A stretch of DNA of 64,000 bases from positions 19,017 through 83,016 of the forward strand of contig JAFTKM010000008.1 of NCBI GenBank assembly GCA_017453245.1, given 5' to 3'. This DNA comes from Clostridia bacterium (GTDB lineage: Bacteria; Bacillota; Clostridia; Oscillospirales; CAG-272). Position numbers and translations under genes: made by a program. Shown piece by piece: positions 3,155-63,868 of this stretch. The notes under the pieces are model-generated. The model worked only from the letters and a program-made list of their open reading frames with translations, did no database searches and had not been told where the DNA came from. Numbering within the stretch: the first letter of the stretch is position 1; the number at the start of each line of letters is the position of its first letter.

Positions 3155-4351
3155 ATGATCAACGACAAGATGTACGCGCTCGGTTCTCAGCGCTCCGAGA
3201 TACGCGAGCTTTTTGAATACGGAAAAAAAAGAAAGGCCGAGATAGGCGAGGAGAACGTATTTGACTTCTCGCTCGGTAACCCGAGTGTCCCCTGCCCCGA
3301 GGAGGTTAACGAGGCAATCGTCTCCCTCGTCAGGAGCGGCAACTCTGTGAGCCTGCACGGCTACACGTCAGCGCAGGGCGATAAGGGTGTGCGCGATGCT
3401 ATCGCCTCGCATATTTCACGGGCTCACGGCTTTGAGGTATCCGGTGACGATCTGTATCTCACGGTTGGCGCGGCGGCGGCTCTTACCTGCTCCCTGACTG
3501 CAACGGTATGCCCCGGCGAGGAGGTCATTCTCCTGGCTCCGTATTTCCCCGAATATAAGGTTTTCGTCGAGAGGACGGGAGCGAGCGTCAAGGTAGTCAA
3601 ATGCACGGAAGGAAGCTTCGAGCCTGACGTTGATGCTATCAGGTCGGCTATCACCGAGAGGACTGCGGCGATCATAGTTAACTCACCGAACAACCCCACC
3701 GGCGCGGTATACTCCGAGAGTAGCATCAAGGCTATCGTAGAGGTCTTGAATGAGAAATCACGCGAGTACGGAAGGGACATATATCTCATAGCGGACGAGC
3801 CGTACAGAGAGCTTGTCTACGACGGTGTGTACGTGCCGTTTATTCCTAAGTATTACGATAATACTATCGTCTGCTATTCGTACAGTAAATCGCTCTCTCT
3901 CCCGGGCGAGAGAATAGGCTATTGCCTTGTCAGCCCGAGAGCACATGAGCACCTGAGGGTATACCTTGCGATATGCGGAGCGGGACGCGCGCTCGGTTAC
4001 GTTTGCGCACCGTCACTTCTGCAAAAAGCGATACCTTACTGCATAGGACTTTACTCAGATTTGAGCGTTTATGATAAAAATAGACAACTTTTGTTGACAA
4101 ATCTTACCGAATACGGTTTTGAAGTGGTAAAGCCGCAAGGAGCGTTCTATTTATTTATCAAGGCTCCGGATGGCAATTCGAAGGCTTTCTCCGAGGAGGC
4201 TAAGAAGCATGAGCTACTTATAGTCGCGAGCGACAGCTTCGGCTACTCGGGATACGCCAGAATATCCTACTGCGTAAAAACCGAACAGATAGAAAAGGCC
4301 CTCCCCGCCTTCCGCGCTTTGGCGGAGCGCTTAGGGCTTTGCGGAGAATAA
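3155..4351 (+). CDS. PLP-dependent class I/II aminotransferase (aspartate/aromatic type)
   Basis: 398 aa. Motifs NPSVPCP, NSPNNPTG and YSYSKSLSLPGERIGY (PLP-lysine motif). GGAGG RBS. First gene of the aromatic cluster. Confidence 0.85.
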   Translation: MINDKMYALGSQRSEIRELFEYGKKRKAEIGEENVFDFSLGNPSVPCPEEVNEAIVSLVRSGNSVSLHGYTSAQGDKGVRDAIASHISRAHGFEVSGDDLYLTVGAAAALTCSLTATVCPGEEVILLAPYFPEYKVFVERTGASVKVVKCTEGSFEPDVDAIRSAITERTAAIIVNSPNNPTGAVYSESSIKAIVEVLNEKSREYGRDIYLIADEPYRELVYDGVYVPFIPKYYDNTIVCYSYSKSLSLPGERIGYCLVSPRAHEHLRVYLAICGAGRALGYVCAPSLLQKAIPYCIGLYSDLSVYDKNRQLLLTNLTEYGFEVVKPQGAFYLFIKAPDGNSKAFSEEAKKHELLIVASDSFGYSGYARISYCVKTEQIEKALPAFRALAERLGLCGE

Positions 4352-4354
4352 ATA

Positions 4355-5443
4355 ATGAAGAATAAGCTGACAGTTGCAAGAGAAAAAATCAATGAGATAG
4401 ACCGCGAGATGGCAAAGCTCTTTGTCGAGAGGCTTAAGGCATCCGAGCTCGTTGCGGAATACAAGCAGGAGCACGGTCTTGAAATACTCGACCCGATAAG
4501 AGAGGCGGAGGTAATAAGACGCAATTCCGAGGCGGTCGAAAACGATGTTTACAGAGAATATTACGTCAACTTCCAGAAGAATACGATGTCACTCTCGAGA
4601 GCGTATCAGGCAAGACTCCTTGGGGGAATGAAGGTAGCTTACTCAGGTACTGAGGGAGCGTATGCGCACCTCGCCGCAAAGAAGCTCTTCCCTACCTCTG
4701 AGGCAATAGGATACGGCAGCTTTGACGAAGCGTATGCCGCTGTGGAAACGGGTGAATGTGACGTCGCCGTCCTCCCTATTGAAAACAGCTATAACGGAGA
4801 CGTAGGACAGGTGAGCGACCTGATGTTCTCGGGCCCCTTGTACGTCAATACCGTGACAGAGCTGGCAATATCTCACGACCTACTCGCGCCTCGTGGTACA
4901 AAGATCGAGGATATCAAAACGGTCATCAGCCATCCTCAGGCTCTCGGACAATGTCACGGCTACATCGTCGGGCACGGATACTCGGAGATGGAGTTTGCGA
5001 ATACCGCTCTCGCGGCAAAATACGTTTCGGAATGCACAGACGGAAAGACGGCGGCGATAGCGAGCGCGGAGGCGGCAGAGATATTCGGCCTTGAGGTGCT
5101 AGCGACAAATATAAACGAGTCGAGAAGCAATACCACGAGATTTGCGGTATTCTCGCGCTCGGAAAACAAGAATTCCATCACCGATAAGAGAGTGCATACG
5201 ATACTTCTCTTCACCGTGCGCCACGAGGCGGGAGCGCTTGCTAAGGCGCTTGAAGTTATCGCAAAATACGGCTTCAATATGGGCGCGCTTCGCTCACGTC
5301 CGATGAAGGAGCTGCTCTGGCAGTATTACTTCTACGTTGAAGCGGAGGGTAACCTGGACAGCGAGGACGGAAGAAAAATGATGGAGGAGCTCAAGGCTTA
5401 CTGTGACAGACTCAAGACCGTAGGCTCGTATACTGTAATCTGA
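4355..5443 (+). CDS. pheA: Bifunctional chorismate mutase / prephenate dehydratase
   Basis: N-terminal CM_2-like helix (REKINEIDREMAKLFVERLKASELVAEYK). PDT domain (VAYSGTEGAYAH, IENSYNGDV) and a C-terminal ACT-like region (TRFAVF...TILLF). Confidence 0.85.
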   Translation: MKNKLTVAREKINEIDREMAKLFVERLKASELVAEYKQEHGLEILDPIREAEVIRRNSEAVENDVYREYYVNFQKNTMSLSRAYQARLLGGMKVAYSGTEGAYAHLAAKKLFPTSEAIGYGSFDEAYAAVETGECDVAVLPIENSYNGDVGQVSDLMFSGPLYVNTVTELAISHDLLAPRGTKIEDIKTVISHPQALGQCHGYIVGHGYSEMEFANTALAAKYVSECTDGKTAAIASAEAAEIFGLEVLATNINESRSNTTRFAVFSRSENKNSITDKRVHTILLFTVRHEAGALAKALEVIAKYGFNMGALRSRPMKELLWQYYFYVEAEGNLDSEDGRKMMEELKAYCDRLKTVGSYTVI

Positions 5444-19705: not shown

Positions 19706-22700
19706 TTATTCGACTATTTCCGAGGTGTAAACGAAGTAAACGTTTCCGTAGGTAAATTCTTCTGTGGGATTGCCGTCGTAGTCGTTTACCGAATCAACGT
19801 TATAGCTTTGAACGTACTCGTTATAGTCCTCTACCGTGTAGCAGGTTGAGATGCTGCCCCAAGGATCAAGCACGACGATGCGTATATCCTCCGCGGTCAT
19901 CTTGTAGCATTCCTGGAACCACATTCCCTCAAAACAGAAGTCACCGGCATTTATAGCAAAAGACATACCGCTAAGCGATACCTCATATTCGAGGTCGGTG
20001 TGCTTTTCGAACAAGCCGCCGGAGTAGATATTGTAGAAGCTGAGAGTGTTCTCGTCGATTCTGATGACTTGATTATCGGTTAAGTAAAGTCCGCACAGAC
20101 GGTCGAAATCTACCTCGAATTTCGCGTTGAGAGATACCGCGGTAAGCTTGAGCGCGAAGAGATCTTCTACCGAGTTTATGGTAATTGCTCCGTCCTCGGA
20201 CCTATATTCCCACTCGCCCGAGAAGTACATTATTCCGTAGGTAAAGTCGGTATACTGTGAATCGAGCTCGGGTGTGCTCCATTCGCCATCACGCGTATAA
20301 ACGTAAGGGCTTTCGTAATCGCCGACGAGCCCTACCTCGGTGTAGAAGAATACCTTGACCTCGTTGAAGGCGGAGACGTATATGTAGCACGAGTTGCCCT
20401 CTGTCGCAACCTCTGCGTCGGGATCGGTTACAGTAGATCCGTCAACGTTCCACGTATATCCGTCAAGGTCAAGCTCGAGCCCGTGCTCTTCGTTAACGAG
20501 AGCTATCACCTCGGCAAGAGTTAGATTCGCAGTGTGATAGATTTTGTAATCGTTTCCGTTCGTGTGTACCGCTACGCAAGGACGGTTATCGGTGCCCCAC
20601 AGCTCGAGGGATGCGTAGGGTACGTAATCCTTAGAGAAGCCGTCTATGTACTCGTATGAGTTGTAGTTCCAATCGTAATTGTCAAACTCAAGGCCGAAGT
20701 AGATCGTAAGAATTTCACCGACTGTAAGACCGTCGTTCTTATTGACGAACTTTTCTCCGTAATAGTTCTCCGTGCTTACGCTCATGCGGAAGGTCTGACA
20801 TATACCGATAATTTTATACGAAGTATAGCTGCGGTCGTAATCCGTCTCGCTGAAGGCGGGATCATAATAGAGCGTGATATCGAGGCTTTCTATTTCCTCA
20901 CAGCTTCCGTCGGGATAGTACAGAGTCCAGACGTACACGCCCTCGGTGGGATATCCGAATTGTGCGAGATCGAAGCAGATATCGCCTGTGAACTCTTCGG
21001 TGTATTCGTATCCGTTCTCGTCGAAAACGGAAACGGTAACGCGCACCTGATTAGGCGTGAAGAAAACGCTGAAGGCGCGGAACTCAAAGCACGTGCCAAC
21101 GAAGGTGTCGTAATCGTACTGCATTCCTTCGACGTTGATGGTGTACATAGTGAGATCCGCATCGATGAACTCGGCTATTTGAGCTCCGTTAGGAACACTG
21201 TCAAATACGAGTGCTTCGTAAATGTAATTTCCCGTGATCGAATCATATAACTCAACGTAAGCTACGTAGCAGGGAATGATCTCAACGGTGCAGTCCTTGT
21301 AAATGAAGCCGTACCATGATTCCAATTCGGGATGATAATCCGTATTTCCAACTCTGTAAAGATACTCGGGAGAGTAGCCGGGAAGAGAGAAATATCCTTC
21401 GTCTTCGGTATATACGTCTTGATAAGCGAAGTATTCGATCGAGGTCGGCGAGGTGAGAGTAATCGTTCCTTCGAGCGTCGTGTACTCATCCATTACGTAG
21501 ATGACGTTTACCGTGATCTCCTCTTCAACCTCGGATTTTTCAATGAGGAAAAGAGTTGAATAGCTTGTCGTGTTAAGATCCTCGATGACCGAGCCGTAGT
21601 TAAATATTACGTAATCGTCGACATTGATTCCGATACCGCCTAAAAATTCCGCAACGCTGGGGAACTGTGTAGCAGAGTATACCTCGGATGCAAGCATCTT
21701 GGTGCCGCTATCGGTAACAAGATATGCACTTGCGTGCTTTTGACATTCAATGTAAGATACGTTGATCTCACCGTAAGCTAAACTGTCAATAGTGCTGTTA
21801 TTGTCAACTATAGTGTATATATTGCTGTCTATTGCGTGCTTAACGTAGAATTCGTCTACGAGCTCGTAATAGGAAACTGGGCAGGGGAAGCTATGAACCT
21901 CCTCGATGCCGAGAGAGGGAATGCTTATGGTAACGGTAGAGCTGAAGTCCTCGGGATGTCCCTTCTGTATAGCAACGAGCTTGTCGTCTACACGTATAAG
22001 ATAATCCTCGGTGAGCTCCTCGCCGTTTGCATACCATACGTAATTTGATTCGCCAAGAGTTGTTCCGTATCTTTCCGAAAGGAGGTTCGCGAGAGTATTA
22101 CGCTTTTCCGTGATACCGCCGGTATACATATCACCCTTGTCGTAATTGACTGTTGCTTCGTAATATCCGCTTTCGTCGTAGGTGTAGTATTCGAAGAGAT
22201 AGATAAGGAAGTACACGTACTCGGGATAGTAATCAGGATTGGATTCGCTGCATCTGTTGCAGTAGCCCTCACTGTTGTAGTCGTGACCGTAGGCGTATTC
22301 ACCTATGATCTTACACAGCTCGCAGTAGCCGTCCTCGGTACAGGTGGGATCTGCCCACACGTGCTCGCATTCGGTGGAGTAGTCGGGATCGGGATCGCCG
22401 CAGTTTACGCAAGAGCCGTCAATATACTGGTGTCCGTAAGCAGCGACAAGGATAGTTCCGCACGCGTAGCATACGCTGTCCTCGGTACAGGTCGCTTCGG
22501 TACGGTTTTCGTGGTAGCAGTAATCGGGATCTACGACCTCACCGAAGTAGCCTGAGCAGTGGATGCAGTAGCCCGCGTCGTCAAGCTCGTGATCGCCGAG
22601 ACCGGTGTTCTCGTAGTAGCGATCACCGCACTCTGTGCAGGTGTAGTAAATAATACCTTCCGTGATGCAGGTAGCATCTTCGACCTTCATCTCGTAGTTG

Positions 22701-23665
22701 TGCTTGCACTCGACGTCATCGGGCGTGTAGTCAGGGTCAGCCTCGCCGCAGTTTACGCAGTAGCCGTCAGAATAGCTGTGTCCCTTTGCGCTCTCGCCGG
22801 GCTCTTCACAGAGCTCGCAGTAGCCGTCCTCGGTACAGGTGGGATCTGTCCACACGTGCTCGCACTCGGGAACAAAGTCGGGATCGGGCTCGCCGCAGTT
22901 TACGCAGTAGCCGTCAGAATAGCTGTGTCCCTTTGCGCTCTCACCGGGAGCTTTACAGAGCTCACAGTAGCCGTCCTCGGTACAGGTGGGATCTGTCCAC
23001 ACGTGCTCGCACTCGGGAACAAAGTCGGGATCGGGCTCGCCGCAGTTTACACAGTAGCCGTCAGAATAGCTGTGCCCCTTTGCGCTCTCACCGAGAGCTT
23101 TACAGAGCTCGCAGTAGCCGTCCTCGGTACAGGTGGGATCTACCCACACGTGCTCGCAGCCGGGTGTGAAGTCGGGATCGAGCTCACCGCAGTTTACGCA
23201 ATAGCCGTCAGCATAGCTGTGTCCGTTAGCTGTGCCACGTGTAGCGGAGCAGTTACGGCAGGTCTCGGGAGTTGTGCATCCTGCCTTCTGCCAGGTGTGT
23301 CCCATCGCCTCACCGTATGTAAAGCTTTCGGTATCAGCCTCACCGCACTCGCAGGAATAGTAGTATTCCGCAGCAGAGGTACAGGTAGCCGAGCTCTTGA
23401 GATATTTGTCGCTCGCTACCTCCTCGGAGTAATCGTGAGTATGTGAATCGGTCGGCTTGTCGTCCGGTTTTTCTCCGGAATCGTCGCCGGGCTTATCTCC
23501 CGTATCATCCCCAGGTGTGTCATCGGTGTTGTCGGGGTTTTCGTCATTTCCGCCGTTAAGAATTTGACCGATATTAAGGTTTCCGTTTTCATCGCAGGAA
23601 GCGAAGGTGAAAACAAGGCTTAATACCATAACGGAAATAAGCAAAAGGTAGAGTAACTTTTTCAT
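19706..23665 (-). CDS. Large secreted lipoprotein (1319 aa) with ~7 Cys-rich (CxxC-containing) 49-aa modules in the N-terminal third and an uncharacterised C-terminal region
   Basis: Signal plus lipobox VLSLVFTFASCDENG and an acidic linker. Repeated module GHSYSDGYCVNCGEPDPDFVPECEHVWTDPTCTEDGYCELCKAPGESAK. Confidence 0.85.
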   Translation of the reverse strand: MKKLLYLLLISVMVLSLVFTFASCDENGNLNIGQILNGGNDENPDNTDDTPGDDTGDKPGDDSGEKPDDKPTDSHTHDYSEEVASDKYLKSSATCTSAAEYYYSCECGEADTESFTYGEAMGHTWQKAGCTTPETCRNCSATRGTANGHSYADGYCVNCGELDPDFTPGCEHVWVDPTCTEDGYCELCKALGESAKGHSYSDGYCVNCGEPDPDFVPECEHVWTDPTCTEDGYCELCKAPGESAKGHSYSDGYCVNCGEPDPDFVPECEHVWTDPTCTEDGYCELCEEPGESAKGHSYSDGYCVNCGEADPDYTPDDVECKHNYEMKVEDATCITEGIIYYTCTECGDRYYENTGLGDHELDDAGYCIHCSGYFGEVVDPDYCYHENRTEATCTEDSVCYACGTILVAAYGHQYIDGSCVNCGDPDPDYSTECEHVWADPTCTEDGYCELCKIIGEYAYGHDYNSEGYCNRCSESNPDYYPEYVYFLIYLFEYYTYDESGYYEATVNYDKGDMYTGGITEKRNTLANLLSERYGTTLGESNYVWYANGEELTEDYLIRVDDKLVAIQKGHPEDFSSTVTISIPSLGIEEVHSFPCPVSYYELVDEFYVKHAIDSNIYTIVDNNSTIDSLAYGEINVSYIECQKHASAYLVTDSGTKMLASEVYSATQFPSVAEFLGGIGINVDDYVIFNYGSVIEDLNTTSYSTLFLIEKSEVEEEITVNVIYVMDEYTTLEGTITLTSPTSIEYFAYQDVYTEDEGYFSLPGYSPEYLYRVGNTDYHPELESWYGFIYKDCTVEIIPCYVAYVELYDSITGNYIYEALVFDSVPNGAQIAEFIDADLTMYTINVEGMQYDYDTFVGTCFEFRAFSVFFTPNQVRVTVSVFDENGYEYTEEFTGDICFDLAQFGYPTEGVYVWTLYYPDGSCEEIESLDITLYYDPAFSETDYDRSYTSYKIIGICQTFRMSVSTENYYGEKFVNKNDGLTVGEILTIYFGLEFDNYDWNYNSYEYIDGFSKDYVPYASLELWGTDNRPCVAVHTNGNDYKIYHTANLTLAEVIALVNEEHGLELDLDGYTWNVDGSTVTDPDAEVATEGNSCYIYVSAFNEVKVFFYTEVGLVGDYESPYVYTRDGEWSTPELDSQYTDFTYGIMYFSGEWEYRSEDGAITINSVEDLFALKLTAVSLNAKFEVDFDRLCGLYLTDNQVIRIDENTLSFYNIYSGGLFEKHTDLEYEVSLSGMSFAINAGDFCFEGMWFQECYKMTAEDIRIVVLDPWGSISTCYTVEDYNEYVQSYNVDSVNDYDGNPTEEFTYGNVYFVYTSEIVE
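22735..23224 (-). repeat. In-gene tandem repeat, 147-nt period, ~3.3 near-identical copies (Cys-rich modules)
   Basis: The aa 148-310 modules are nearly identical. The antisense ORF 22786..23169 shows the same 49-codon periodicity (SSRPRYRWDLSTRARTREQSRDRARRSL...). Confidence 0.85.
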
Positions 23666-52776: not shown

Positions 52777-53124
52777 TCTATAGCACACCGGGGCGAAAAA
52801 GTAAAGGACGGTTTGATTACTCGGGGCCGCCCTGCTTTTAACCTTCCCCAGCGAAGCGAGTTGGGGAAGGGGGACCACCTTTGGTGGTGGATGAGGTTGA
52901 ATTGATGCTCACGCATCATAAATTGCACGTTGTGCATGAATTGGCTACACCATGAATTGACGGCAAAGTCGTCACTATGGTGAAGTTTTTGCCTACGGCA
53001 AAAGTGAAGTTGTGCGAAGCACAGTGAAGTTTGAGGCGTTGCCTCAAGTGAAGTTGATTTTGCTCGGTGCAAAATCAGTTATTCGGTAAGAGACCTCATG
53101 GCTTTGGCAATACAGTCGGGGTAA
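52777..53124 (-). repeat. Cassette junction repeat copy 5 (cotJC-tail mimic 53079-53117, word-hairpin array 52842-53075, promoter block 52777-52835); followed by no ORF
   Basis: The mimic encodes DCIAKAMRSLTE-stop on the minus strand. The array is parsed in the findings. TTTACT, 17 nt, TATAGA. Confidence 0.8.
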
Positions 53125-53571
53125 CTAATTATTCAATAGATGATTTATCAACTCTTCGAGTCCGTCGGAATCAACGTTATAACCCCTCTTGCCGGTTTCG
53201 CTTTCTTCTGTTGCTTTATCCACCCACCCCGAATATGAAAATTGTAGCTCATACGTGGGGTAATAAAAAACAAGAACATTCTCTCTAGGCCAGTTTGGCT
53301 CCATAACTATCAGTTTTTCAAATTTCATATTAGCTATTTCTGATATTGCATAATCACATTCTTCGGCACTTAATGTTTTGACAATTTCGGTATTGAATTG
53401 ATATTCCGGTTCATAAATAGTAGAATAAGTGACAATCTCCGCCTTTACTAAATCGGCGCTTAATTCATCGTAAGTATAAGTTACGTAAGAGCCTGTACAT
53501 GATGCTGTGTTGAATAAAACGCAAAATACAATAAGCAAAACTAGTACGCACTTCACATTGTTATTATTCAT
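53125..53571 (-). CDS. Cassette D cargo: small lipoprotein (148 aa), hypothetical
   Basis: MNNNNVKCVLVLLIVFCVLFNTASCTGS (signal plus Cys). GGAGG lies 8 nt upstream of the ATG at 53571. AT-rich. Confidence 0.7.
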   Translation of the reverse strand: MNNNNVKCVLVLLIVFCVLFNTASCTGSYVTYTYDELSADLVKAEIVTYSTIYEPEYQFNTEIVKTLSAEECDYAISEIANMKFEKLIVMEPNWPRENVLVFYYPTYELQFSYSGWVDKATEESETGKRGYNVDSDGLEELINHLLNN

Positions 53572-53915
53572 AGTTGTTCCCTCCATAAAAAACTTATAGA
53601 ATGATGCCACATTTATTATACCACACTCACACGAAAAAGTAAAGGACGATTTGATTTCTCAAACCGCCCTATATGATGAATTGATGCTCACGCATCATGA
53701 ATTGCACGATGCGCATGAATTGGCTACGCCATGAATTGACGGCAGAGCCGTCACTATGGTGAAGTTTTTGCCTATGGCAAAAGTGAAGTTGTGCGAAGCA
53801 CAGTGAAGTTTGAGGCGTTGCCTCAAGTGAAGTTGCTTTTGCTTCTTGCAAAATCAGTTATTCGGTAAGAGACCTCGTAGCTTCGGTAATACAGTCAACA
53901 TAAAGCATTATTCAA
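53572..53915 (-). repeat. Cassette junction repeat copy 4 (mimic 53858-53896, array 53676-53855, promoter 53615-53643)
   Basis: The mimic encodes DCITEATRSLTE-stop. Promoter is TTTACT, 17 nt, TGgTATAAT. Confidence 0.85.
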
Positions 53916-54773
53916 TCACTTTAATTTTTCTTTACAATAACGCAAAAGCTCTTTGGTTAAGCAACAGAACGATTCACCTTTCACCTGTACCTTTCCATTG
54001 GAATCTATGAACTCACAACAAAATTCAATATAGTAGCACAACTTTATACTATTATCCAACAGGACTCTAATTGGTGAGCCAATTTGGACAAGTTCTTTTT
54101 TTCTCCAAAGATTTCGGTCAATGAAAATGCCTTTATCATCATAGTCAGAATTACTCGCAATTTGCTCTAATGGCTCAAATGAGAAGTATATTCCAAGATA
54201 TGTTGAATTTTCATTAGATAAAAACATTGTGAGTTCTACAAAATCAACTTGCTTAAAGCATCTTTTCCCAAATTCATTCCAATACCAAAGATATATTAAC
54301 AGTTGCTTTTGGGAAAGAAATTCAGTCAATCCAGATAAATCTTCTTTTTCCCAAAATCCACCGATCGTATATGTTTTGTATTTTATTTTTGGTTGTTCGC
54401 AATAAGTAATTGCCTGTTCAAACAACTGTGACGAGGGCGAATAATCAATATCAATTCTGCCAAATGTTTTGGTCTTGCCACATTCCGTGCATTGTGAGAC
54501 AAGCTCAACGGAAATAAAATCATCTGTTTCTTTTCTTCGCAGGTAATCAAAACGAACCTTAAAGAAATCATTTTTACAGGAACACTTTTGCTTGCTTGGA
54601 TGCTTTTCTTGAATTAAATCATACCAATATTCTTTACTATCAAGAATAAAATAGGATTTATCAGAACGAGATATAAGAATACCTGCATTTTCATCACGAA
54701 TATATCTGATTTGAAACTCATCTTCTCCTATAGATGACACAATTTCTTTTTGTATTTTTCTTTCGTCAAGCAT
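53916..54773 (-). CDS. Cassette C cargo: hypothetical protein (285 aa) with a CxC...CxxC putative zinc-ribbon
   Basis: KQKCSCKNDFF...SQCTECGKTK. AAAGGAA RBS. A hand count of one 60-nt line (54001-54060) gives 17 G+C. Confidence 0.7.
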   Translation of the reverse strand: MLDERKIQKEIVSSIGEDEFQIRYIRDENAGILISRSDKSYFILDSKEYWYDLIQEKHPSKQKCSCKNDFFKVRFDYLRRKETDDFISVELVSQCTECGKTKTFGRIDIDYSPSSQLFEQAITYCEQPKIKYKTYTIGGFWEKEDLSGLTEFLSQKQLLIYLWYWNEFGKRCFKQVDFVELTMFLSNENSTYLGIYFSFEPLEQIASNSDYDDKGIFIDRNLWRKKELVQIGSPIRVLLDNSIKLCYYIEFCCEFIDSNGKVQVKGESFCCLTKELLRYCKEKLK

Positions 54774-55018
54774 ATGGCAATTCCTTTCTTTTGTTATACA
54801 ATGTCAAACGATGAATTGAGCCGTTGGCTCATGAATTGCACAAAGTGCATGAATTGGCTACGCCATGAATTGACGGCTATGCCGTCGTTGTGGACACCTC
54901 ATCCACCACTTCGCGGTCGACCCCCTTCTCCCACTGGAGAAGGCTGAGGTTATTCGGTCAAAGACCTCATAGCTTCGGCAATACAGTCAGAGTGAAGTAT
55001 TCTTTTTAAATACGGTTC
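54774..55018 (-). repeat. Cassette junction repeat copy 3 (mimic 54950-54988, short array 54808-54949); lacks the conserved promoter block
   Basis: The mimic encodes DCIAEAMRSLTE-stop. About 55 nt (CCTTCTCCCACTGGAGAAGG hairpin through CATAGCTTCG) is near-identical to the true cotJC end at 57021-57075. Confidence 0.85.
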
Positions 55019-55522
55019 TCATTTGCCACAACAGCTATTACAAGCACTATCGGGTTCTTTACAATGATACCAACAATAATCCTGGCTAATTCGAGACGCA
55101 TATTTTGAAGCCTGAATTTCAAGAGAACGATTGTTTTTTTCCTTATCATCATAAAAATACCATTGAAAATAATGTGTCAGTTCATGACTTAGCGAATCGT
55201 ATATTTGGCATAAGCTTTGTTGCGTAGGAATGTATATCTGCGGATATGCTCGTTCGCCACTTTCATGATTTGAGAAAAACATCCCATAGCTATATCCCCC
55301 TTTGTGCTTACGAAATTTTTCTTGATTGCAAAAATAAACATTACATCTTATCGGGAAGTAAAATTCTTTTCTTAAATAGCGTACAAAATTACATATACAT
55401 TTCTTGGTTTTAGGGTCAATGTCTGATGCAAAATGAAGAGAAAGATTTGATTTAGGTGCTGAATCTGCATAAAATGCCAAGTTTTCCTCTGTTTTTGTTA
55501 CCCACAAAAAGTTATTTGCCAT
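55019..55522 (-). CDS. Cassette B cargo: hypothetical HExxH protein (167 aa), possible small zinc metallopeptidase, Cys-rich C-terminus
   Basis: LSHELTHYFQW and C-terminal CWYHCKEPDSACNSCCGK. ATG at 55522 has GGAGGT 8 nt upstream. Confidence 0.7.
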   Translation of the reverse strand: MANNFLWVTKTEENLAFYADSAPKSNLSLHFASDIDPKTKKCICNFVRYLRKEFYFPIRCNVYFCNQEKFRKHKGGYSYGMFFSNHESGERAYPQIYIPTQQSLCQIYDSLSHELTHYFQWYFYDDKEKNNRSLEIQASKYASRISQDYCWYHCKEPDSACNSCCGK

Positions 55523-55895
55523 TTTTAAGCACCTCCATTTCAAATCGACTCTATGATAATTATACCACACACCTACCAAAAAGTAAAGGACGATTTGATC
55601 TCTAAACCGCCCTATTGAATGAATTGAGCCGTTGGCTCATGAATTGCACGTTGTGCATGAATTGGCTACGCCATGAATTGACGGCTATGCCGGCGTTGTG
55701 GACACCTCACCCACCGTCTGCGACGTCCCCCCTCCCCAAAGGGGAGTGTAAATGCCACCTTCGCAAAGCGAAGATTTCATCGCTTTAGCGATTTCATCCG
55801 ACCTCGTCGGATTTATTTCGTCTTGGACGGATTTAATTGCGAAGCCTACTCCGTAAGGCTTCGCATGGCTTCGCCAATGCAGTCGACATGAAGTA
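55523..55895 (-). repeat. Cassette junction repeat copy 2 (recoded mimic 55846-55884, array 55616-55845 with ATTTCAT-type words, promoter 55559-55587)
   Basis: The mimic encodes VDCIGEAMRSLTE-stop with different codons for RSLTE-stop. Promoter is TTTACT, 17 nt, TGgTATAAT. Confidence 0.85.
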
Positions 55896-56669
55896 CTATT
55901 TATTGTTTTCCACCAACTTTTTTATGTAATCGCTTCTGCTTCCGTCCCAATGACACAATTCGCATTTGCCGTCCTTAAATTGATGCTTACACTTTTCATA
56001 ACCATAAAGAATATGTGCACACTCGGGACAAAGCGACATCATTTGCGATTTAGTTTTAATAAACTTGCTTCCGCATTCATCACATTCGTGACAGATTGAG
56101 CCAAGAGTTTCTTTCATTTTTTCTCTATCATAATCTAAAAAATAACCTTCAAGTTTTGGATAAAACTCAATATATTTATTCTCAGAAAAGAAAACAATAT
56201 CACAACCCCTATCGTCATAGACTGAAAATATAAATTGATCATCAAATGAAACAAAACTGACCAAAGGTGAATATTGATTATCTATTTGTTTTTTTATTAT
56301 TCTTTCAAAAACTGCGAAATCAACATCAAATGAAATATATCTTTTTACTGTTTCAACATCTTCGTCTATTAGATCTATACTATGTAGCACATCCATATCA
56401 AGATTAATTACTTCGTCAATGGTTATTCCAAAATTGCCAACTTCGCATGCTTTGCCGTCAATAAAATACTCTAAATAAAATGCCGCATCTATTTTTTTGT
56501 TTTCAAATAAAATGTTAGCAATTTTCATTGCTCTCTCTAAAGCGTTATCAAAATATTCTTTGCCTTGACCAATTCCCAACTCGCATCTTAAAGCTAATTT
56601 ATTACTGTAAAACCAGGGCTGCGAGTAATCGAAAGTGGGGTCAAGTATTTTTTCACGCATATTGTTCAT
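55896..56669 (-). CDS. Cassette A cargo: hypothetical protein (257 aa), DUF3885-like N-terminal region (tentative) plus C-terminal double zinc-ribbon
   Basis: SVYDDRGCDIVFF, and CHECDECGSKF...CPECAHILYGYEKCKHQFKDGKCELCHW. AT-rich. Confidence 0.7.
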   Translation of the reverse strand: MNNMREKILDPTFDYSQPWFYSNKLALRCELGIGQGKEYFDNALERAMKIANILFENKKIDAAFYLEYFIDGKACEVGNFGITIDEVINLDMDVLHSIDLIDEDVETVKRYISFDVDFAVFERIIKKQIDNQYSPLVSFVSFDDQFIFSVYDDRGCDIVFFSENKYIEFYPKLEGYFLDYDREKMKETLGSICHECDECGSKFIKTKSQMMSLCPECAHILYGYEKCKHQFKDGKCELCHWDGSRSDYIKKLVENNK

Positions 56670-57045
56670 GTTACTTGCTCTCTTTTAGAATATAATATTG
56701 TTTTTTACATTATACCACAACCCACATGAAAAAACAAGGACGATTTGACTAATCAAACCGCTAATCAAACCGCCCTTGTGGATGAATTGAGCCGTTGGCT
56801 CATGAATTGCACAGAGTGCATGAATTGGCTACGCCATGAATTGACGGCTGTGCCGTCGTTGTGGTGAAGTTTGCGTTTCACGCAAGTGAAGTTGTGCGAA
56901 GCACAGTGAAGTTGATTGTAGCCTTCTCCTGAGGGAGAAGGGGGACCACTTGTGGTGGATGAGGAGTTGGCTATAATTACAACAAAAGTGACACCTCATC
57001 CGCCTCACTTCGTTCAGCACCTTCTCCCACTGGAGAAGGCTTAGG
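56670..57045 (-). repeat. Cassette junction repeat copy 1 (abuts the true cotJC stop; array 56781-57045, promoter 56709-56737)
   Basis: Same ATGAATT and GTGAAGTT word-hairpin grammar. Promoter is TTGTTT, 17 nt, TGgTATAAT. Carries a duplicated GGTTTGATTAG unit. Confidence 0.8.
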
Positions 57046-57594
57046 CTATTCGGTCAAAGACCTCATAGCTTCGCCAAAGCGCTGGTAGTGGACAATCTCG
57101 CGCTGGCGGAGGAATTTGATAGCGTCGTTTACGTCGGGGTCGTCGCTAAGGCGGAGGATATTATCGTAGGTGACTCTCGCCTTCTGCTCTGCCGCGAGGT
57201 CCTCGTTGAGGTCGGAGAGCGCGTCTCCCTTTGAGGATATTGCAAACGCGTTGAAGGGCTCGCCCGATGCCGCCGAGGGGAAGACACCGTTGCCGTGGCC
57301 GATGTAATACTTATCAAGGCCGCCGGCAGTTATCTGCTCGGGGGTGAGGTTGCGTGTGAGCTGATAGATGATACTGCCCACCATCTCGGCATGCCCGAGC
57401 TCCTCATTGCCGATGTCCGTTAAGGTAGCGATAATCTTGCCCTTAGGCATAGTGAATCTCTGATTCAGGTATCTTGTCGCGGCGCCGAGCTCACCGTCGG
57501 GACCTCCGAGGGCGTCTATAATAAGACTTGCTAAGCGCGCGTTGGGGTTCTTAATCTTTACGGGGTACTGAAGCTTTTTCTCATATATCCACAT
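57046..57594 (-). CDS. cotJC: Spore coat protein CotJC (manganese-catalase-family)
   Basis: MWIYEKKLQYPVKIKNPNARLA...GELGAATRYLNQRF...EELGHAEM...REIVHYQRFGEAMRSLTE. Close to my recollection of B. subtilis CotJC. Confidence 0.9.
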   Translation of the reverse strand: MWIYEKKLQYPVKIKNPNARLASLIIDALGGPDGELGAATRYLNQRFTMPKGKIIATLTDIGNEELGHAEMVGSIIYQLTRNLTPEQITAGGLDKYYIGHGNGVFPSAASGEPFNAFAISSKGDALSDLNEDLAAEQKARVTYDNILRLSDDPDVNDAIKFLRQREIVHYQRFGEAMRSLTE

Positions 57595-61793: not shown

Positions 61794-61824
61794 ATTTACC
61801 TCGCGGCTGGTTGATTTCGTCTCT

Positions 61825-61853
61825 ATTTTAGCATATTAAAGCGAAGTTGTAAA
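61825..61853 (-). promoter_or_regulatory. Candidate promoter of the heparinase-like gene
   Basis: On the minus strand: TTTACA (61848-61853), 17-nt spacer, TGcTAAAAT (-10 at 61825-61830). Confidence 0.45.
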
Positions 61854-61858
61854 GTAGA

Positions 61859-62154
61859 GTGACGATGATTCTTTACTCCGTAAAGAGATATATTCGCCCT
61901 GAGGCGAGTGATATGTTGCTTTTCGCAACGTGATATTATTTCGCCGTGCGAAATAGTGATATGCTCGCTACAAGCGAGCGTTAAAAGAAAAAGCAACCAG
62001 CAGGTGACGATGATTCTTTACTCCGTAAAGATCGATATTCGCCTTACGGCGATCGATATGCGCTTCGCGCTCGATATATTGGCTTCGCCAATTCTATATG
62101 TGCTCTCACGAGCACGATAAAAGAAGAAAGCAACCATCTACCGGTTGCTTTTCT
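61859..62154. repeat. Two tandem word-hairpin arrays, each opened by GTGACGATGATT-CTTTACtccGTAAAG; words GTGATAT (array 1) and TCGATAT (array 2)
   Basis: Array 1 spans 61859-61979 and array 2 spans 62004-62116. Each is followed by an AAAAGAAnAAAGCAACC... terminator-like motif. Full parse in the findings. Confidence 0.8.
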
Positions 62155-62160
62155 AATATA

Positions 62161-62197
62161 AAAAAGAACGGTCAGCAGGTGACCGTTCTTAATTTTT
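62161..62197 (-). terminator. Terminator T2 of the rplL pseudo-copy
   Basis: AAGAACGGTCA gcagg TGACCGTTCTT. Same loop and flanks as the true rplL terminator, but a completely different stem. Confidence 0.65.
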
Positions 62198-62208
62198 ACA
62201 GAGTGTGA

Positions 62209-62257
62209 ATTACTTAACTTCAACTTCTGCGCCTGCAGCCCCCGAGTCTGCTGCAGA
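62209..62257 (-). pseudogene. rplL 3'-end fragment F2 (last ~10 codons plus stop plus 3' UTR)
   Basis: 62209-62240 is identical over 32 nt to 62695-62726. It then diverges in a 5-nt patch (CCCGA instead of TTGAG). Confidence 0.85.
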
Positions 62258-62390
62258 TAATCAAGCGAAGCGTATCGGGGAGCTCGCTCACCAGTACGCG
62301 AGCGCAGATTGCTCCGTGGCGGCTCGTCACAGACGAGCATAGGCGCGTAGCGCCAAGGACACGAAGTGGACTTACGCCACATAGGAGTAT
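62256..62390. repeat. Structured ~135-nt element, copy B
   Basis: About 93% identical to 62498-62631 (about 9 differences by eye). Contains perfect triloop hairpins GCTCGTC-aca-GACGAGC and GGCGC-gta-GCGCC, enclosed by GTGGCG/CGCCAC. Confidence 0.85.
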
Positions 62391-62502
62391 CTTCTCAGCC
62401 TCTTCCTTAGAGATGCCTTCCTTGATGGTCTTGGGAGCAGTCGGGCAAGATCCTTAGCATCCTTAAGACCAAGACCGCAAACGTCCTTAACAAGCTTGAT
62501 AA
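62387..62502 (-). pseudogene. rplL internal fragment F1 (codons for IKLVKDV...EAEK), frameshifted
   Basis: 50 nt and then 54 nt are identical to 62744-62793 and 62801-62854. They flank a patch where real ACTCAAC (7 nt) is replaced by TCGGGC (6 nt), shifting the frame by one. Confidence 0.85.
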
Positions 62503-62631
62503 TCAAGCGAAGCGTATCGGGGAACTCGTTCACCAGTACGCGAGCGCAGATTGCTCCGTGGCGGCTCGTCGCAGACGAGCATAGGTGCGTAGCGCCAAGG
62601 ACACAAAGTGGACTTACGCCGCAGGGAGCAT
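62498..62631. repeat. Structured ~135-nt element, copy A
   Basis: See copy B. Lies between the true rplL terminator and fragment F1. Confidence 0.85.
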
Positions 62632-62650
62632 AACGGGGATTTTAAAAGAA

Positions 62651-62690
62651 AAAAGCAACCAGCAGGTGGTTGCTTTCTTCTTTATAGAGA
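62651..62690 (-). terminator. rplL intrinsic terminator T1
   Basis: On the minus strand: AAAGCAACCA cctgc TGGTTGCTTTTTTCTTTT. Confidence 0.75.
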
Positions 62691-62695
62691 TGAAA

Positions 62696-63067
62696 TTACT
62701 TAACTTCAACTTCTGCGCCTGCAGCCTTGAGGTCTGCAGCGAGCTTCTCAGCCTCTTCCTTAGAGATGCCTTCCTTGATGGTCTTGGGAGCAGACTCAAC
62801 AAGATCCTTAGCATCCTTAAGACCAAGACCGCAAACGTCCTTAACAAGCTTGATAACGTTAAGCTTGGATGCGCCTGCGCTGGTAAGAACAACGTCAAAC
62901 TCGGTCTTCTCCTCAACAACGGGAGCTGCTGCTGCAACTGCGCCAACTGCTGCTACGGGAGCTGCGGATACACCGAACTCCTCCTCAAGAGCCTTAACGA
63001 GATCAGCAAGTTCAAGAATAGTAAGACCCTTTACAAGGTCAAGAATCTGGGTAGACTTTTCGTTCAT
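62696..63067 (-). CDS. rplL: 50S ribosomal protein L7/L12
   Basis: [36 protein letters not shown]...[56 protein letters not shown]. Confidence 0.95.
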
Positions 63068-63652: not shown

Positions 63653-63835
63653 TTTGTTTCCACCTCCATAAAAATTTCAAATAAAAAATCCTTTCCGGGA
63701 GAAACACACAACTCTCCGAGAAAGGACAACCAAAATGAACGCAACGGTACTCCATCGCGTAAAATTATTGAATTTGTCTCACCTCGGCAGGAAAGCTATG
63801 CGCTTTTACCGGAACCTGCTGTCTTAGGATACCTA
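63653..63835 (-). ncRNA. rplJ 5' leader, candidate L10-leader-type attenuator
   Basis: ~180-nt UTR between the promoter and the ATG. Imperfect stem CCTTTCTCGGAGA / TCTCCCGGAAAGG (63690-63726) followed by ATTTTTTATTT on the minus strand. Autoregulatory L10 leaders are well known in Firmicutes. The structure has not been checked against a covariance model. Confidence 0.4.
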
Positions 63836-63839
63836 TGGT

Positions 63840-63868
63840 ATTATACACGAAGTGAAGTCACTTGTCAA
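63840..63868 (-). promoter_or_regulatory. Consensus sigma-A promoter of rplJL
   Basis: On the minus strand: TTGACA (63863-63868), 17-nt spacer, TATAAT (63840-63845). Confidence 0.7.

Follow-up and report, generated by a model that had tools for sequence, protein, structure and literature searches.

Why should the 3′ end of a ribosomal-protein gene be found a second time, in pieces, directly behind the intact gene? The question is raised by the rplL locus of a Clostridia bacterium (Oscillospirales; CAG-272; GenBank assembly GCA_017453245.1), in a stretch of 64,000 nt (contig JAFTKM010000008.1, positions 19,017 to 83,016) that is referred to here as the window. An earlier note on this DNA had described a split, frameshifted copy of the rplL tail interrupted by two copies of a structured repeat, here called element E, and had suggested an integration footprint or an antisense RNA. 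Comparison with related contigs indicates that the locus is probably a genomic fossil, in which an old duplicate of the end of the gene was reshaped by conversion, repeat insertion and recombinational deletion. The duplication, the insertions, the concerted evolution of copy and gene and a presence/absence polymorphism among relatives are all observed; the copy itself would appear to be without function.

Arrangement of the rplL locus

All of the features described in the earlier note were found, at or within a few bases of the positions given there. Read 5′ to 3′ on the minus strand, on which all of them lie, the order is rplL, terminator T1, E copy A, rplL fragment F1, E copy B, rplL fragment F2 with the stop codon, the 3′ untranslated region (3′UTR) and terminator T2. 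The real gene (62696–63067; L7/L12, 123 aa) was taken from the list of open reading frames (ORFs) and is intact; PF16320 and PF00542 were found on the identical product in the related contigs L001–L010. It appears to be the donor of the sequence that homogenizes the tail copy. Its terminator T1 (62645–62683, hairpin 62652–62676) consists of AAAGCAACC-ACCTGCT-GGTTGCTTT followed by a T-run and defines the T1-type allele.

Within the window the 5′-most trace of the tail copy is the hexamer CGTTAT (62630–62635), what remains of the rplL sequence AACGTTAT on the left side of the site where copy A was inserted, which was recognized by comparison with the left flanks in L019 and L004 and with the E-less L024. 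Copy A (approximately 62499–62629; covariance model R1, 149 bits) was delimited by alignments and covariation and is inserted at GTTAT^CAAGC of the tail copy. F1 (62391–62498) corresponds to rplL nt 216–324 and holds two exact repeats of the real gene reported by the repeat finder, one of 57 nt (62446–62502 = 62800–62856) and one of 50 nt (62391–62440 = 62744–62793). They are separated by patch 1 (62440–62445), in which CCCGAC stands in place of TTGAGTC; this 6→5-nt change (GTTGAGT to GCCCGA-) removes a net 1 nt and shifts the frame. The description of a colinear, non-coding pseudo-copy of the 3′ part of rplL was upheld. Copy B (62257–62390; model R1, 163 bits) is a second insertion in the tail copy, between GAGAAG and CTCGCTGCAG. 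F2 (62210–62256) corresponds to rplL nt 325–372 (..AGAEVEVK-stop); it includes patch 3 (TCGGGGG, 62239–62245), which is common to L004, and a 33-nt exact match, and is 82% identical to rplL over 60 nt spanning the stop codon and the start of the 3′UTR. The exact matches had been reported as 50, 54 and 32 nt long; their presence was confirmed and their lengths are corrected here to 57, 50 and 33 nt.

The 3′UTR and T2 of the tail copy occupy 62156–62209 (hairpin 62164–62190, AAGAACGGTC-ACCTGCT-GACCGTTCTT; the T2-type allele). T2 is bidirectional and has diverged from T1. The two terminators are nevertheless homologous, with a common ACCTGCT loop and a common 3′UTR start, and their stems differ through compensatory changes.

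The possibility of an assembly chimera was addressed with independent assemblies. A lookup of the exact L12 protein in public assemblies gave 23 contigs, and the ORF that runs from E into the tail in L004, used as a query, gave a dozen further short E–L12 fusion ORFs from many samples. One contig (L001, an ENA metagenome contig under a separate record) is base-identical to the window across the whole region, and three further places are similar. The E–tail junction is present in more than ten assemblies of five related lineages (L004, L019–L023 and L031; short fusion ORFs P0002–P0013). An assembly artefact is ruled out by the identical independent contig and by the junction in many independent assemblies. 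The locus is a real genomic feature, without sign of acting as a regulator.

Variation among relatives

The DNA behind rplL differs strongly between related contigs. In L002, L005, L006, L007 and L009 the gene is followed by T2 as sole terminator, with no tail copy. In L003, L008 and L010 it is followed by T1, a hairpin array and a partial T1 (T1′), again with no tail copy, and the T1 type is the sole terminator type. A tail copy without E, bounded by T1 on both sides, lies 37 nt behind the proximal terminator in L024 and L025. The order rplL–T1–E–tail copy–T2 is found in L019–L023, with 26 or ~210 nt between T1 and E, and in the window and L001, with a spacer of 7–15 nt. L004 has rplL–T2–E–tail copy–T1, the terminator order being reciprocal to that of the window. 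The tail copy appears to be an old 5′-truncated duplicate of rplL, older than these lineages, between which the adjacent rplJ differs by 4–8.5%.

Tail copies without E reach at least 20 nt further upstream of the E junction (L024, L026), L024 aligning to rplL about 20 nt upstream, and remnants of rplL are kept to the left of E (AACGTTAT in L019, CTTAAGATTAT in L004). Copy A was therefore inserted into a pre-existing, longer tail copy and does not mark a boundary of the duplication; it is present at the position given in the earlier note, which is corrected here in that copy A is an insertion and not a separate spacer. The uninterrupted tails of L004, L019 and L023 represent the empty site for copy B, and L024 is empty at site 1. 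Copy B, which had been likened to an intron, is indeed a discrete insert: the filled site reads GAGAAG[ATACTCC...GATTAT]CTGCAG and the empty tails read GAGAAGCTCGCTGCAG. In L031 a further, strongly decayed tail copy carries a tandem pair of E at a third site (GACTAT^CA..). Altogether the state of the tail copy ranges from an intact ORF through frameshifted copies to copies interrupted by one, two or other elements.

Among these other elements is one of ~170–190 nt with terminal inverted repeats (TIRs; AGCTAATCACAACCC...GGGCTGTGATTAGCT), which is present at the same point of the tail copy (GCGCAGAAG^) in three lineages (L004 ~4750–4950, L024 1306–1476 and, as a diverged relative, L031 ~499–667). 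P0009 and P0013 suggest yet another insertion at this point. In L003 (4372–4640) a 25-nt stretch of the T1 3′ half (CCACCTGCTGGTTGCTTTTTTCTTT) is directly duplicated on the two sides of a 128-nt hairpin array, and the sequence after the distal T1 of L004 represents the empty site; the array seems to be another insertion at the rplL locus, with a long duplicated flank. The rplL 3′ end with its terminator is accordingly flagged here as a candidate hotspot of recombination and insertion in this clade.

Gene conversion between gene and copy

All real rplL tails were aligned with all tail copies. Each copy bears the lineage-specific single-nucleotide polymorphisms (SNPs) of its own real gene: the copy in L020 equals its gene at 165/165 positions, and those in L019 and L021 carry the variants of their own lineages, including ATC→ATT at the junction itself. 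In the window, copy and gene are distinguished only by patches 1 and 3 and by a gap of 1 nt together with one substitution at the copy B junction. Since the copies share the SNPs of their own genes, the long exact matches probably reflect gene conversion from the real gene and not recent copying. Gene and copy evolve in concert, the conversion probably running from the expressed gene to the copy. The simple tandem duplication with random decay that the earlier note had put forward as the contrary outcome was not seen, the copy being old, homogenized and polymorphic in relatives.

Three patches stand out against this identity. Patch 1 (CCCGA-) is found in the window and in L023, and also in ORFs P0009–P0013 and P0073; patch 2 (GTACACTC.CGG) in L023, L004 and L024; and patch 3 in the window and L004. 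Such a reticulate distribution would be expected if all three had been present in the ancestral copy and conversion had then removed one or another of them, depending on the lineage. The sequences of patches 1 and 3 complement each other (GCCCGA-CUGC and GCAGACUCGGGGGC) and replace a native inverted repeat of rplL (GUUGAGUCUGC and GCAGACCUCAAGGC); the complementarity could be compensatory, implying selection, or the product of a template-switch mutation.

Two further candidate signs of exchange were rejected. A 10-nt match between patch 2 and the downstream flank of L002 was not significant, 6/10 bases being native. The real tail differs by 8–10% between groups, against 1.5–4% for the 5′ part of rplL, but rplJ differs by 4–8.5% and the tail is thus not exceptional.

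Concerted evolution by gene conversion is seen in duplicated bacterial genes such as tufA/tufB, where paralogous stretches likewise remain identical within a genome while diverging between lineages. At rplL, in contrast, one of the two partners is a truncated pseudo-copy that is not translated, and the converted sequence is broken up by patches and insertions.

Element E

E is ~131 nt long and has no coding capacity. The two copies in the window are 95% identical over 126 nt; a 33-nt E probe matches exactly these two sites (none expected by chance), and the covariance model found no further copy in the 64-kb window. Exact-word scans of genome and metagenome collections revealed additional copies in metagenome-assembled genomes (MAGs) of uncultured Ruminococcus/Clostridia, at unrelated intergenic sites: around spoIIAA-spoIIAB-sigF, after gap and inside a terminator-like hairpin. 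Elsewhere E occurs in both orientations relative to its neighbours; in rplL tails it always has the orientation of the gene. It has entered rplL pseudo-tails at three different sites.

When 13 copies were aligned, an invariant 22-nt core (GAGCCGCCACGGAGCAATCTGC) was apparent. The fold comprises a 5′ four-way junction closed by GUGGCG/CGCCAC, followed by a long 3′ hairpin closed by AAUC/GAUU. Pairing is maintained in 95% of cells, against at most 49% in slid controls, and 11 pairs are changed on both sides; these values were reached in 0 of 500 shuffles. G.U cells number 33 and A.C cells 6, a count biased by the way in which the structure was derived, and it is this excess that places the fold on the rplL-sense strand.

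The left flank of E varies (TTAT, AGAT, TTCT, CCTT, GCTT), being (G)TTAT in 7/12 copies and another sequence in five, and the right end is constantly TTAT. The alignment showed no TIRs, the ends ACTCCTATGTGGCG... and ...CGCTTGATTAT not being inverted. Comparison of the filled and empty sites of copy B (GAGAAG[AT ACTCC..GATTAT]CT(C)GCTGCAG) gave no duplicated bases and hence no target-site duplication (TSD). Among the copies outside rplL a flank repeat was seen in L016 only, and it is a pre-existing tandem repeat. That repeat consists of three units of a conserved hairpin that resembles a terminator and encloses a smaller hairpin (GCTCGCAATAGGTNACTATTGC), the second unit being the one into which E is inserted; the hairpin is present in two unrelated MAG loci (L014 ~170–230 and L016 ~3270–3400).

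Several identities for E were considered and set aside. In the Rfam search only the L10 leader reached the gathering score and nothing meaningfully overlapped E at E ≤ 10, and ARAGORN gave no tRNA-like or tmRNA cloverleaf in E, so that a known RNA family or a tRNA-like identity was rejected. A TnpB/IscB ωRNA with the rplL flank as guide was rejected because none of the copies has tnpB or iscB in its vicinity and E is not overlapped by a long ORF; likewise, no ORF for tnpA (Y1) or tnpB was found beside any copy. A template repeat of a diversity-generating retroelement was discarded since the differences between gene and copy are three multi-nucleotide patches and indels and not adenine-specific. 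A role for E in creating the duplication (by flank capture, slippage or a long TSD) is contradicted by the existence of E-less tail copies and by the rplL remnants left of E. A profile search with the E peptide, in a search space of short MAG contigs, returned 15 short ORFs only (57–86 aa) with no transposase domain, and no phage or plasmid relatives of E were found.

E is therefore classed here as a new family of non-autonomous structured repeats that behaves like a miniature inverted-repeat transposable element (MITE) or an IS200/IS605 miniature but is assigned to neither class; its mobility would be of some such kind. With MITEs it shares its small size, non-coding nature, multiple copies and filled and empty sites, but it differs in the absence of TIRs and of a TSD. 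The palindrome-associated elements of IS200/IS605 (PATEs) also have neither, and E might resemble them further in its partial preference for a short motif, TTAT, on the 5′ side (7/12 copies, the other five differing); unlike them, it has no transposase-bearing parent copy among the copies found. Dispersal in intergenic DNA and a strong fold are common to E, MITEs, repetitive extragenic palindromes (REPs), bacterial interspersed mosaic elements (BIMEs) and PATEs. Its four-way junction and long hairpin with an invariant core, absent from Rfam, differ from the simple subterminal hairpins of those families.

Origin of the duplicate

In the proposed sequence of events, the last ~170–200 nt of rplL with the 3′UTR and terminator would have become an old, 5′-truncated direct duplicate directly behind the intact gene. 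RecA-type conversion from the expressed rplL would have overwritten the copy repeatedly, leaving only the three patches and the diverged T2. Because it is dispensable, the copy would have collected small non-autonomous repeats, two E in the window and a ~190-nt TIR MITE in relatives, E mostly entering directly 3′ of (G)TTAT. Finally, the structure would be deleted when one tail recombines with the other, or one terminator with the other, to yield the single-terminator alleles of other strains. That the duplicate itself began as a tandem duplication, running from rplL nt ~170–200 to just past the terminator and followed by divergence, conversion and pop-outs, is a serious possibility, though short of a probability; it is supported by L024, in which both units carry T1.

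Some observations weigh against a neutral fossil with a single origin. A 165-nt direct repeat at 0.2–0.5 kb from its partner should be lost rapidly and yet persists in several lineages, which could reflect selection for function or repeated re-creation. The complementarity of patches 1 and 3 could mark a selected RNA or DNA hairpin and not a neutral residue. It is in rplL pseudo-tails that both E copies of the 64-kb window, and three independent insertion sites of E in all, are located; this concentration could result from targeting rather than tolerance. The reciprocal terminator order of L004 (T2 proximal, T1 distal) would require additional recombination steps.

The reciprocal order speaks for the scar of an integration, an alternative that also fits and that we consider doubtful, though not far from tandem duplication in weight. 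A phage, an integrative and conjugative element (ICE), an integrative and mobilizable element (IME) or a small cassette, with an attP carrying its own rplL 3′ end and terminator, would have integrated in rplL, supplying the present tail and T1 and displacing the native tail and T2 downstream; its body would later have been deleted, leaving 7–210 nt, and E and the other repeats would be secondary. The terminators, as diverged homologues with compensatory stem changes beside homogenized coding parts, each the sole terminator in some strains, fit such a history, although pop-out from a duplication predicts the same T1-type and T2-type single alleles. Taken with L026, L031 points to at least two tail units in a row, the distal one most decayed, as in tandem accretion, and in the same window each of the four one-gene cassettes behind the cotJC 3′ end is accompanied by a mimic of the cotJC tail. 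There is precedent in the target: streptococcal ICEs and IMEs of the Tn5252/ICESa2603 type integrate in the rplL 3′ end, a known tyrosine-integrase target (PMC4701971), and e14 duplicates the 3′ end of icd (PMC13626634). In E. coli K-12, according to the account in PMC13626634 (citing Hill et al. 1989), e14 at icd is accompanied by a 5′-truncated, same-orientation duplicate (icdC) of the last ~165 nt of the gene. The likeness to rplL lies in the truncated tail duplicate downstream of an intact housekeeping gene, at the e14/phage 21 site in the E. coli case, and in the chimeric or single-copy alleles that recombination between the two copies gives (PMC13626634). In E. coli, however, a 15-kb prophage with an integrase separates the copies; between the two rplL tails there are 7–210 nt with no ORF (window, L001, L004, L019–L025) and no recombinase, and the rplL copy differs further in including the terminator and in being homogenized by gene conversion. 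The streptococcal elements share with the present case the target gene and the end of it, but their direct repeats at rplL are 12–54 bp, not ~220 bp, and flank large elements, whereas here, in a Ruminococcus-like Clostridia MAG, there is no element. No integrase, phage or conjugation gene was found between the repeats in ~15 loci, viral contigs scanned for the tail, T1 and T2 yielded no match or chance matches in high-GC phages, and in L024 both units carry T1, the outcome expected of a plain duplication. L026, the sole contig with foreign DNA beside a tail copy, is 783 nt long with ~1× coverage and is probably chimeric; it was rejected as an attR and kept as a lead only, since its cI-like repressor ORF is truncated and no rplL sequence is present in the integrase island that holds the full-length homologue.

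The constant E–tail junction invites another explanation, in which the unit of rplL tail, terminator, short spacer and E is itself mobile, E serving as the folded cis-acting end for a trans-acting recombinase or transposase. Such a module would insert at GTTAT^C in rplL with a replacement tail, which would explain both the junction (GATTAT|CAAGC across lineages, beside hypervariable DNA left of E) and the occurrence of the two orders T1..T2 and T2..T1; E is usually found 3′ of GTTAT, and GTTAT^C holds the only TTAT in the tail. We regard this as improbable: the E-less copies that extend past the junction and the rplL remnants left of E indicate insertion into an existing copy and not a boundary, copies elsewhere have no gene tails (the duplicated flank in L016 lying within the pre-existing tandem repeat), and no partner enzyme was found. 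A functional RNA is more improbable still. E and the tail copy would be transcribed, in sense by read-through of T1 or in antisense from the plus strand, and would regulate rplL or the ribosomal operon or act as a decoy, and the conserved fold with its G.U bias towards the rplL-sense strand, the complementary patches and the persistence of the arrangement in several lineages could be read in this way. Between T1 and T2, however, no promoter-like site was found; the one candidate on the plus strand is located outside this interval and points towards the bidirectional T2, which blocks entry from that side. The whole structure is missing from many strains (the L002 and L003 types), the tail copy may be intact, frameshifted or interrupted, and E occurs in unrelated contexts in both orientations. 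The antisense RNA proposed earlier was thus not borne out, the G.U pairs also placing the fold of E on the other strand, and any regulatory or antisense role seems very remote.

Neighbouring features and the cotJC locus

Further along the minus strand, a repeat search found another T1-like terminator hairpin with a different loop (T3, 62118–62151), which may be the remnant of another tail/terminator unit. Beyond it (61859–62117) are two short-hairpin arrays with an ATATCRN spacer and a partial T1 copy between them (T4, 61983–62006), homologous to the T1–array–T1′ block of L003. Short variable hairpin arrays of this kind, often with GNRA-like loops and a constant 5–9-nt spacer, also occur in L003, L011, L012, L015 and L020; the spacers differ between arrays (ATATCRN, GTTAT, AATTCATG, AACTTCAC, ATGGAATC, TGATGATAT). 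One array in the window (61885–61966, plus strand) gave a sub-threshold match to Rfam Gut-1 (RF01706; 41.6 versus 50 bits). In most relatives (L002–L008) a gene with an AhpC/Redoxin domain (477–511 aa) lies between rplL and the Hepar_II_III gene; the window (61794–62160) and L001 are without it. Upstream of rplJ the ribosomal protein L10 leader (RF00557, 45.7 bits; 63674–63846, minus strand) is present as expected. A tandem repeat with a 147-nt period occupies 22234–23245 of the window, with four copies of a 223-nt unit that are 65–95% identical. In a Logan assembly, ORF P0112 encodes a protein of 146 aa that has an N-terminus like a signal peptide and two repeats resembling the L12 C-terminal domain; it is unrelated to the rplL locus.

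The cotJC gene (57046–57594) is followed by four one-gene cassettes encoding proteins of 257 (DUF3885), 186, 285 and 161 aa (52780–57080, minus strand). They are separated by a repeated module of ~300 nt made up, in this order, of a cotJC-tail mimic, hairpin arrays and a promoter-like block with an inverted repeat; one of the mimics (54924–54981) is 95% identical, terminator included. The arrangement looks like an accretion of cassettes at the 3′ end of cotJC. An integrase was not seen there, and a search for more cotJC contexts recovered the same lineage only. The earlier note had suggested that one integration process acted at both genes. The part concerning cotJC stands, in that its module begins with a tail mimic; at ~15 rplL loci no integrase or element body was found. 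That the mimics at rplL and the four at cotJC are att-like ends belonging to a system that accretes cassettes without an integrase in cis is unlikely. Under this same reading, an enzyme acting in trans would insert modules with a replacement tail and terminator into conserved genes at the 3′ end, with E and the hairpin arrays as recognition structures.

Implications

Were cassette accretion to prove true, it would constitute a new, integron-like way in which gut and rumen Clostridia stack cassettes behind housekeeping genes. On the reading preferred here, that of a genomic fossil, a tempting misinterpretation is corrected: the exact matches to rplL would record the conversion of an old pseudo-copy and not a fresh integration or an antisense regulator. 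E is an apparently undescribed repeat family in uncultured Ruminococcus-like bacteria, and gene callers translate it into spurious 'L12-domain' ORFs (P0001–P0013). A hotspot at the rplL 3′ end would matter both for the annotation of MAGs and for the use of ribosomal-protein loci as strain markers.

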